Assembly (NCBI RefSeq): GCF_964213995.1
Contig: NW_027590581.1
Location: 124,001-188,000, forward strand
From: Mustelus asterias
Lineage: Eukaryota
Reading direction: 5' to 3'
DNA length: 64,000 nt
Each line of letters opens with the position of its first letter. The stretch's first letter is position 1. The position numbers and the translations under genes are program-made. Shown here piece by piece: positions 56,400-57,560 of this stretch. Below the pieces are notes generated by a model. That model was not told the origin of the DNA. It saw only the letters and a program-made list of their open reading frames with translations, and did not search any database.

Positions 56400-57560
56400 G
56401 AGCGGTGGAAACAATCCCTCAGCATGCACACTATCAAACAGTCTCGCCGTTGCAGACTTGTCAATGGGATCACTTTTTATTATTCCAAACTCTAGAGAGA
56501 AAAGGGTAACCACAATGAATCTCTCCTCCAAGGGCAACTGTCTCATCACAGCAATCAATCCATTGAACCTTCGTTACACAGACAGCGCGAGAATAGAGGG
56601 AAACAAGAACACACTATGGAAAGTGGATAGAGGCACAGTGAGAGACTGAGAGAGTGCAAAATAATGAGGTCGTTACACAGAAACAAAGAGAGACAGATAT
56701 CGACAGTGTGTGGGGGAGTCAGCCACATCGTATGAATGAATAACAATGTACACAAAGCCAGCAGCGGGAACCCACAAGCATTGGGTCCTCTGAATTGTTG
56801 ACTAGGGATAAAGAGAAGGTCCAAAAGAAGAGTCAACTTTTGAAAACATCTTGAACTGCCTGTGAGTGCGTTGTGTTGTTAGATTCCTTGTGTTGTCAGT
56901 TTCACAAACCAAACCGCGGAAAAACTCATCCTGCCGTGTGCACGGCAAAGAAATGAACAAGACATTGCCATTGCAAACAACAACAATGGGGCCCGTCCGG
57001 GAATTGAACACGGGACCTCTCGCAGCCTTGCACATCACAACACCCAAAGCGAGAATCATACCCCTAGACCAACGAGCCACTGTTGCGGGAGCTCCTCAAA
57101 TACGGATATATATTGTCATACAAATCTGATCAGACAGCTGCCCTGAAAGCTGGAAGCGCTGGAGAAACTCAGGAAGCCAGGCATCAAGTGCACACAGGGA
57201 AAGGACTGTATTCTTACACCTTCATAACCTTTCATTTTACCCTTTAAGCTGGTAAAGTTTGGAAATGTAGGAAGTTTTAAATAAGTGAAATCCAGGAGGA
57301 GCGAGGAAACATAACAACAGGAAAGGGCCCTGACCGGGTACAATTCAAGAGAGATAAATGAACAACTTGTTTACAGTCCATGGTCTGAGCGTGAGGAAAG
57401 CAGAGTATCATAGAATGTTTGCACCGCAGAATGAGACCATGCACAAAATCTTTGAAGAAGTCACGTGTGCTGTGGATAATAGGGAGCCGGTGGGTGTACT
57501 GTCCAGCGATTTCACAGGAGCTGCAGTGATGAGGTTGGTGGATTTGGGAAATTGAGAGGA
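56400..57560 (+). repeat. Duplicated tRNA-Pro-bearing block, copy 1 (copy 2 at ~62100-63200)
   Basis: Collinear diverged matches such as tattccaaactctagag~taattctaaactccagag, caatccattgaaccttcgttacacagacagc~caatccagtgaacctcggttacacacagacagc, gaaatgtaggaagttttaaa. Confidence 0.8.
56989..57078 (-). tRNA. tRNA-Pro(TGG) with an 18-nt intron (57042-57025)
   Basis: GGCTCGTTGGTCTAGGGGTATGATTCTCGCTTTGGG-[tgttgtgatgtgcaaggc]-TGCGAGAGGTCCCGTGTTCAATTCCCGGACGGGCCC; removing the insert gives a 72-nt vertebrate-type tRNA-Pro; one T-stem mismatch. Confidence 0.9.

Follow-up and report, generated by a model that had tools for sequence, protein, structure and literature searches.

The window, that is, the whole 64,000-nucleotide stretch that we analyzed, carries a tRNA-Pro(TGG) gene of 90 nt on its minus strand (56989..57078). 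This gene is one copy of an amplified subfamily and is interrupted at the canonical intron position, as seen both in the sequence itself and with ARAGORN, which returned tRNA-Pro(tgg) i(38,18) at 57078-56989 on the minus strand when its intron search was switched on. The gene was missed by ARAGORN without the intron search and by Rfam at the gathering score. The 36-nt 5' exon (57043..57078, minus) provides positions 1-37, including the anticodon at 57046-57044, and differs from the intronless reference at base 34 only. It is followed by an 18-nt intron (57025..57042, minus) between positions 37 and 38, in which bases −3 to −6 (57027-57030) can pair with the anticodon loop as U32:G, U33:A, U34:A and G35:C. 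The 3' exon (56989..57024, minus), also 36 nt, completes the tRNA with positions 38-73.

The putative A box (positions 8-19) falls at 57061..57071 on the minus strand and the putative B box core (positions 53-61) at 57001..57009, if both lie where established knowledge of tRNA positions would presumably put them. The A box is identical to that of the intronless gene, while the B box core contains a single change, A59U, with a second change, G52U, adjoining it. Downstream of the gene lies a 3' trailer of about 42 nt (56947..56988, minus) that is common to the subfamily. Its likeness to a retrocopy on scaffold C3, described below, stops at an interrupted T run at 56953-56947, which is likely to be the Pol III stop. 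The first uninterrupted T run (T5; 56920..56924, minus) sits 64 nt 3' of the gene and may serve as a fallback terminator.

Compared with an intact intronless gene, the 3' exon of this copy carries three changes. A59U (57003) is found throughout the subfamily, and A69G (56993) leaves a U:G wobble. G52U (57010) produces a U52:C62 mismatch that breaks a T-stem pair, and the mature tRNA body of this copy is not intact. The original prediction had described the 18-nt insert at 57042-57025, its four pairs with the loop and the one T-stem mismatch, all of which we could read directly, but did not mention A59U or A69G, and its caution that the copy may itself be inactive seems fair. Because of the mismatch, the copy is probably impaired, either as a poor substrate or through an unstable product. 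All stems are retained in 10 of the 14 copies whose introns are near-identical to the one found here.

The gene is embedded in a multikilobase segment of a tRNA cluster (55501..58600) with which it has been amplified. This segment has counterparts on scaffold C71 and on no fewer than seven small contigs, with 98% identity over 2.6-3.1 kb. The window also holds a tRNA-Lys(CTT) gene (61778-61853, minus strand) and, on the plus strand, a tRNA-like sequence (53167-53235) that looks Thr-like by eye and whose acceptor stem is broken. The gene order Pro, Lys, Thr, Asn, Cys recurs on C71, and behind the window the series continues with Leu and many Val genes. ARAGORN found 19 genes in the 60 kb behind the window and, in 200 kb of sequence each, 33 genes on C71 and 31 on C85. 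In these mixed clusters, the genes to which it assigned 37/38 introns were all of the Pro, Arg-TCT or Arg-TCG type.

The other features of the window are of different kinds. A tRNA-derived SINE occupies 49069-49400 on the plus strand, and directly behind it, at about 49470-49600 on the same strand, lies the 3' part of an Ig/TCR variable-like segment, whose matches to antibody V domains were weak (best E value, 5.6e-08). This V-like fragment points to a jawed vertebrate. By eye, translations at 26105-26566, 36577-37377 and 39623-40681 resemble fragments of a CR1-type LINE reverse transcriptase, and the frame at 36018-36797 encodes what we take to be a GIY-YIG-like product. In other genomes, no look-alike of the window was found by place.

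We then searched the 3.68-Gb vertebrate assembly, in which the gene lies on a 248-kb contig, with a pattern made of the exon parts around the anticodon (exact over 30 nt) separated by a gap of 5-35 nt, and with a gap-free form of the same pattern for intronless genes. Across the whole genome, the gapped pattern gave 156 exact matches with AGG, CGG or TGG anticodons, a figure that may be inflated by small contigs that are duplicate haplotypes; the reversed-pattern control gave 0. The gap-free form gave nine exact matches to intronless tRNA-Pro. Among the 100 insert-bearing matches listed of the 156, 46 lie on scaffolds of at least 5.6 Mb (24 on C71, 13 on C85, two on C19, one on C72 and six singles), and the rest are on contigs of less than 3 Mb. 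The intron-bearing genes sit mostly in large, repetitive, amplified tRNA clusters, and the intronless Pro genes are few and dispersed, an arrangement of clusters beside a few solitary genes that holds for Arg-TCG as well.

We inspected 125 tRNA-Pro genes, 115 with an insert (62 TGG, 39 AGG and 14 CGG) and 10 without. The inserts are 13-18 nt long and comprise 54 distinct sequences in the 115 copies. Selecting loci by the exact 30-nt pattern or by similarity favors intact copies, and it is with this bias that the exons were identical to those of the intronless gene except at base 34 in 45 of the 115, with at least one exon change in the other 70, and that all four stems were paired in 80, with a broken stem in 35. 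Intact intron-bearing copies, the lack of which would have spoken against the original prediction, are thus plentiful, and the intron-bearing shark tRNA-Pro family that it proposed proved broader than foreseen, extending to three Pro anticodons and to Arg-TCG. Seven perfect intronless genes together cover all three Pro anticodons; splicing is therefore not needed for viability. Six further, more diverged intronless copies have short flanks that by eye are like those of the intronless genes.

Two intron-bearing Pro-AGG genes on C19, L006 (C19:64524768) and L007 (C19:64526440), are solitary, with unique introns and flanks and no other ARAGORN gene in 40 kb. They have near-perfect exons, a U20C change in common and T4-T5 terminators, and they are the best candidates for old orthologous loci. 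Two Pro-CGG genes, L030 (C71:15847543) and L058 (C140:614613), have the intron and flank of a TGG lineage and lie 1.4 kb from a TGG copy, which likely reflects a recent anticodon switch following tandem duplication.

When the cut is placed between bases 37 and 38, all 115 insert-bearing copies give one and the same mature sequence. With the cut shifted by +1 or +2, 92 and 59 copies, respectively, still give it, and with a shift of −1 only two do. The insert of the 56989..57078 copy taken alone could slide by two bases, and in 23 of the 115 copies the insert is unable to slide either way. Since only 37/38 gives one mature sequence throughout, we place the cut there and reject a noncanonical position. 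The inserts also resemble canonical introns in being short and poorly conserved in sequence.

The A-I pair, which joins base 32 to intron base −3, is U:G in the 56989..57078 copy. A purine is found at −3 in 104 of the 115 copies, and the pair is present in nine of 11 lineages; U:U stands at this position in the main CGG lineage, which has 10 copies. When the comparison was extended to bases 32-35 against intron bases −3 to −6, 92.7% of the positions were paired over 55 distinct loop-plus-intron types, compared with 47 ± 3% (maximum, 59.5%) in 2000 shuffles. All four positions were paired in 41 of the 55 types, and in slid registers in at most one. Because the copies are related, we repeated the count on the majority sequences of the 11 lineages and found 39 of 44 pairs, whereas shuffles gave 20.4 ± 3.3 (0 of 20000 as high) and slid registers at most 24. 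The anticodon-intron helix with its 3-nt 3' bulge, the geometry that had been suggested for the 3' splice site, therefore holds at the level of lineages. Moreover, intron base −5 tracks base 34: it is A or G in 25 of the 27 TGG types, whereas 17 of the 20 AGG types have T and four of the eight CGG types have G. The combination of G at −5 with C34 is that of the main CGG lineage, and one single CGG gene pairs poorly in the helix.

Minimum-energy folding of the 56989..57078 copy did not predict the anticodon-intron helix (z, −1.26), nor was a cloverleaf containing it obtained when four precursors and one intronless gene were folded by free energy. The genome holds one TSEN-domain exon (PF01974) above the cutoff. 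From sequence alone, the insert is likely to be a canonical-position intron that would be removed by the normal splicing enzyme.

The same pattern test applied to tRNA-Arg(TCG), with a pattern representing one sequence type (other intronless types may exist), gave 47 matches with a 16- to 20-nt insert at 37/38 and one match without. The intron-bearing genes lie on C85, C72, C75 and small contigs (L199-L218). We inspected 20 of the 47 matches and found C32:G(−3) retained in all 11 distinct inserts. The sole intronless match, L219 on C24, is solitary and intact and has a T7 run. A separate intron-bearing gene at C85:4419238-4419330 is of the Arg-TCT type and carries a TCG anticodon, a possible anticodon shift.

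We estimated rates of change by counting parsimony changes per site across 91 sequences from five subfamilies, treating sites as independent and leaving out seven retrocopy-like loci, copies with at least seven 3'-exon changes, L108, L109 and groups of fewer than eight members. Exon sites outside the search pattern showed 0.25 changes per site (52/210), compared with 0.55 (727/1313) in the upstream flank from −300 to −21. The rate was 1.06 (106/100) in the inner 20 nt of the 5' flank and 0.80 (44/55) in the 5' part of the intron. Relative to the upstream flank, the exon ratio is 0.45 and the inner 5' ratio is 1.91 (P < 1e-8, on the assumption that sites are independent). A slowly changing gene beside a rapidly changing inner 5' flank is the pattern of active tRNA genes, according to the available text of an earlier study (PMC6130373). 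The rates found here have this published signature of transcription. Neither a SINE nor a neutral repeat fits the family, in which cluster copies have kilobases of flank in common and exons change at 0.45 of the flank rate, and we therefore rejected a SINE origin.

Pairwise divergence was examined in 103 of the 115 copies, again without the seven retrocopy-like loci and copies with at least seven 3'-exon changes. Pairs with less than 2% flank difference differed at 1.9% of free exon sites, compared with 0.8% of flank sites, and purifying selection is not visible in these young copies. Among more distant pairs, the exon difference reaches a plateau at 3-5% while introns reach 63%, the level at which same-length introns differ in pairs with unalignable flanks. 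One small bin, with more than 20% flank difference, has a 14% exon difference and is probably driven by a decayed subfamily. In seven of 18 subfamilies the majority exon is identical to the intronless gene. Exon variants specific to subfamilies include G16U, C20 and A59U. Since the youngest pairs decay while exon difference levels off, these sequences are best described by birth and death, in which individual copies would decay and lineages be retained.

A T4 run occurs within about 20 nt of 55 of the 115 intron-bearing genes, compared with eight of 10 intronless genes. Sequencing reads compared with the 3' exon and downstream flank gave flank pieces in X5 (organism B), three short contigs in X6, short adapter-bearing tRNA-Pro contigs in X11 (organism C) and nothing in X13.

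One dispersed copy lacks the intron exactly. This copy, L061 (G000:C3:136697032-136698099; copy at L061:1478-1596), has a 4-nt leader and the 43-nt trailer of the 56989..57078 subfamily, 88% alike, and it directly abuts LINE reverse transcriptase sequence. Its best full-length matches among 42 hits are intron-bearing cluster genes, and no intronless gene with the same trailer was found among these hits (40 of 435 candidates scored). On the simplest reading, L061 is likely a cDNA, or retrocopy, of a spliced but untrimmed precursor. An inverted 354-bp duplicate (96% identity) lies at about positions 800-1155 of L061, and its start, the first base of the 3' exon, again marks 37/38.

Seven other dispersed, RNA-derived-looking copies keep the insert. 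Five of them have a SINE within 3-16 nt on the 3' side and an upstream sequence unlike that of all other inspected loci, and a sixth is flanked, as judged by eye, by a SINE-like piece and a LINE-like one. The seventh belongs to a chain. This chain of four decayed tRNA copies at L222:424-802 (G000:C14:65108223-65108601) consists of a Tyr-like copy with an intron, a Pro copy with an intron, an Arg-like copy and a Thr copy, separated by spacers of 11-24 nt and followed by a SINE; it looks like the product of serial template switching during reverse transcription.

We consider it probable that these observations reflect a TSEN-spliced tRNA-Pro family whose clustered copies are partly transcribed and which evolves by birth and death. 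At least in the germ line, Pol III would transcribe some of the clustered copies. TSEN would measure from the tRNA body, use the A-I pair and cleave the precursor, and RtcB would then ligate the exons. The excised introns might be circularized into tricRNAs, as the original prediction suggested. The spliced product would be the same tRNA that is made from the few intronless genes. Segments would duplicate together with the gene they contain, young copies would decay about freely, and the lineages that persist would keep the exact mature sequence.

A chance insertion into one dead gene, or an assembly artifact, would suit the broken T-stem pair of the 56989..57078 copy, but the 156 matches and the 54 distinct inserts, which occupy a single position in all 115 copies and are spread over many scaffolds, rule out chance insertion and make this reading scarcely credible as a whole. 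A more serious alternative, though an unlikely one, is that the clustered intron-bearing genes were once active and today are carried along by segmental duplication in heterochromatin, for the most part silent, with proline tRNA supplied by the roughly seven intronless genes. The free decay of young copies and the weak terminators agree with such silence. CpG transitions, which fall on 12 of 72 sites, account for 28 of 116 exon changes, as would be consistent with methylation. Most predicted tRNA genes of the zebrafish lie in closed chromatin, as stated in the accessible part of PMC11574265. However, exon constraint and the raised inner 5' rate are also found where distal flanks differ by 0.1-0.2 changes per site, in the C85 13-nt and CGG families, so that activity would not be only ancient, and the two single-copy AGG genes on C19, with near-perfect exons and terminators, are likewise at odds with general silence.

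It is also conceivable, though very improbable, that the genes are transcribed but TSEN leaves the insert in place. The identity of the exons would then be due to A- and B-box selection or to gene conversion, and the intronless retrocopy to slippage of reverse transcriptase. The 2-nt repeat at the insert ends in the 56989..57078 subfamily could have promoted such slippage (a shift of +2 fits 59 of the 115 copies), and the seven dispersed copies that look RNA derived still contain the insert. Promoter selection, however, leaves unexplained the conserved acceptor and anticodon stems, the pairing register between −3 to −6 and 32-35, and the covariation with base 34, and the A-I rule is obeyed by all 11 distinct Arg-TCG inserts among those inspected. 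We therefore favor a spliced and partly transcribed family.

With Pro and Arg-TCG, this vertebrate genome has up to four further intron-bearing anticodon families. They provide dozens of natural candidate TSEN substrates with covarying anticodon-intron helices, although the 56989..57078 copy itself is probably not among the working ones. Intron-bearing and intronless genes for one mature tRNA constitute a natural paired test of modification, expression and stage, and the family offers a way to date intron gain and loss in vertebrates. It is still an open question why tRNA introns have been retained, according to the available part of a recent review (PMC10275265). It is tempting, if doubtful, to suppose that sharks keep two sets of Pro and Arg(TCG) genes, one of a few intronless genes for housekeeping and the other, amplified and intron-bearing, for the germ line or egg. 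In that case the intron might mark a maternal repertoire and place the supply of the egg under TSEN control, and the introns might represent an old jawed-vertebrate state lost toward mammals.

Comparison with known systems shows both the ordinary and the unusual side of the family. Intron-bearing tRNA families in human and mouse are Tyr-GTA, Ile-TAT, Arg-TCT and Leu-CAA, as far as the accessible text of two reviews extends (PMC10275265, PMC8479045). The conserved features named in the same text are the pairing of pyrimidine 32 with the third-last intron base, a purine, and a helix between bases 32-35 and the intron (PMC8479045, PMC10275265). In so far as these sources describe them, the human families have in common with the shark genes the 37/38 position, short introns that differ between copies, the pyrimidine-32:purine(−3) pair and the anticodon-intron helix. 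Human Arg-TCT and Leu-CAA also mix intron-bearing and intronless genes in one family, as shark Pro does. In contrast, Pro (AGG, CGG, TGG) and Arg-TCG lie outside the human set, and the 156 matches found here, most of them in amplified clusters, compare with 28 intron-bearing genes in all reported for human in the accessible text. Within the partial texts retrieved, our literature search returned no description of Pro or Arg-TCG tRNA introns in vertebrates, although automatic shark tRNAscan-SE annotation may contain them. An older human annotation reportedly included one low-confidence intron-bearing Pro-AGG gene.

Zebrafish have clustered maternal-type and solitary somatic-type tRNA genes, according to the available sections of two reports (10.1101/869651, PMC11417395). 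The likeness, one of gene arrangement, lies in large, repetitive mixed clusters beside a few dispersed genes with the same anticodon; those sections do not mention that the two classes of zebrafish genes differ in introns, and here two intron-bearing genes, those on C19, are solitary. Human tRNA/LINE chimeric retro-insertions are mostly antisense tRNA halves, as described in the part of the preprint available (10.1101/2025.02.02.635956). Like them, the shark retrocopies occur at dispersed sites and have a tRNA fused to a LINE or SINE that is truncated, but they represent complete precursors in sense orientation, leader and trailer included, and the intron may be present or absent.

Budding yeast has 10 intron-containing tRNA-Pro(UGG) genes according to the accessible text of PMC4090602. 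Isotype, anticodon and canonical intron are the same in yeast and shark, whereas the shark family spans three Pro anticodons, has diverse introns and coexists with intronless genes. The feature and the family are real, and what is new is a probably ordinary splicing mechanism in isotypes for which our search found no vertebrate report.
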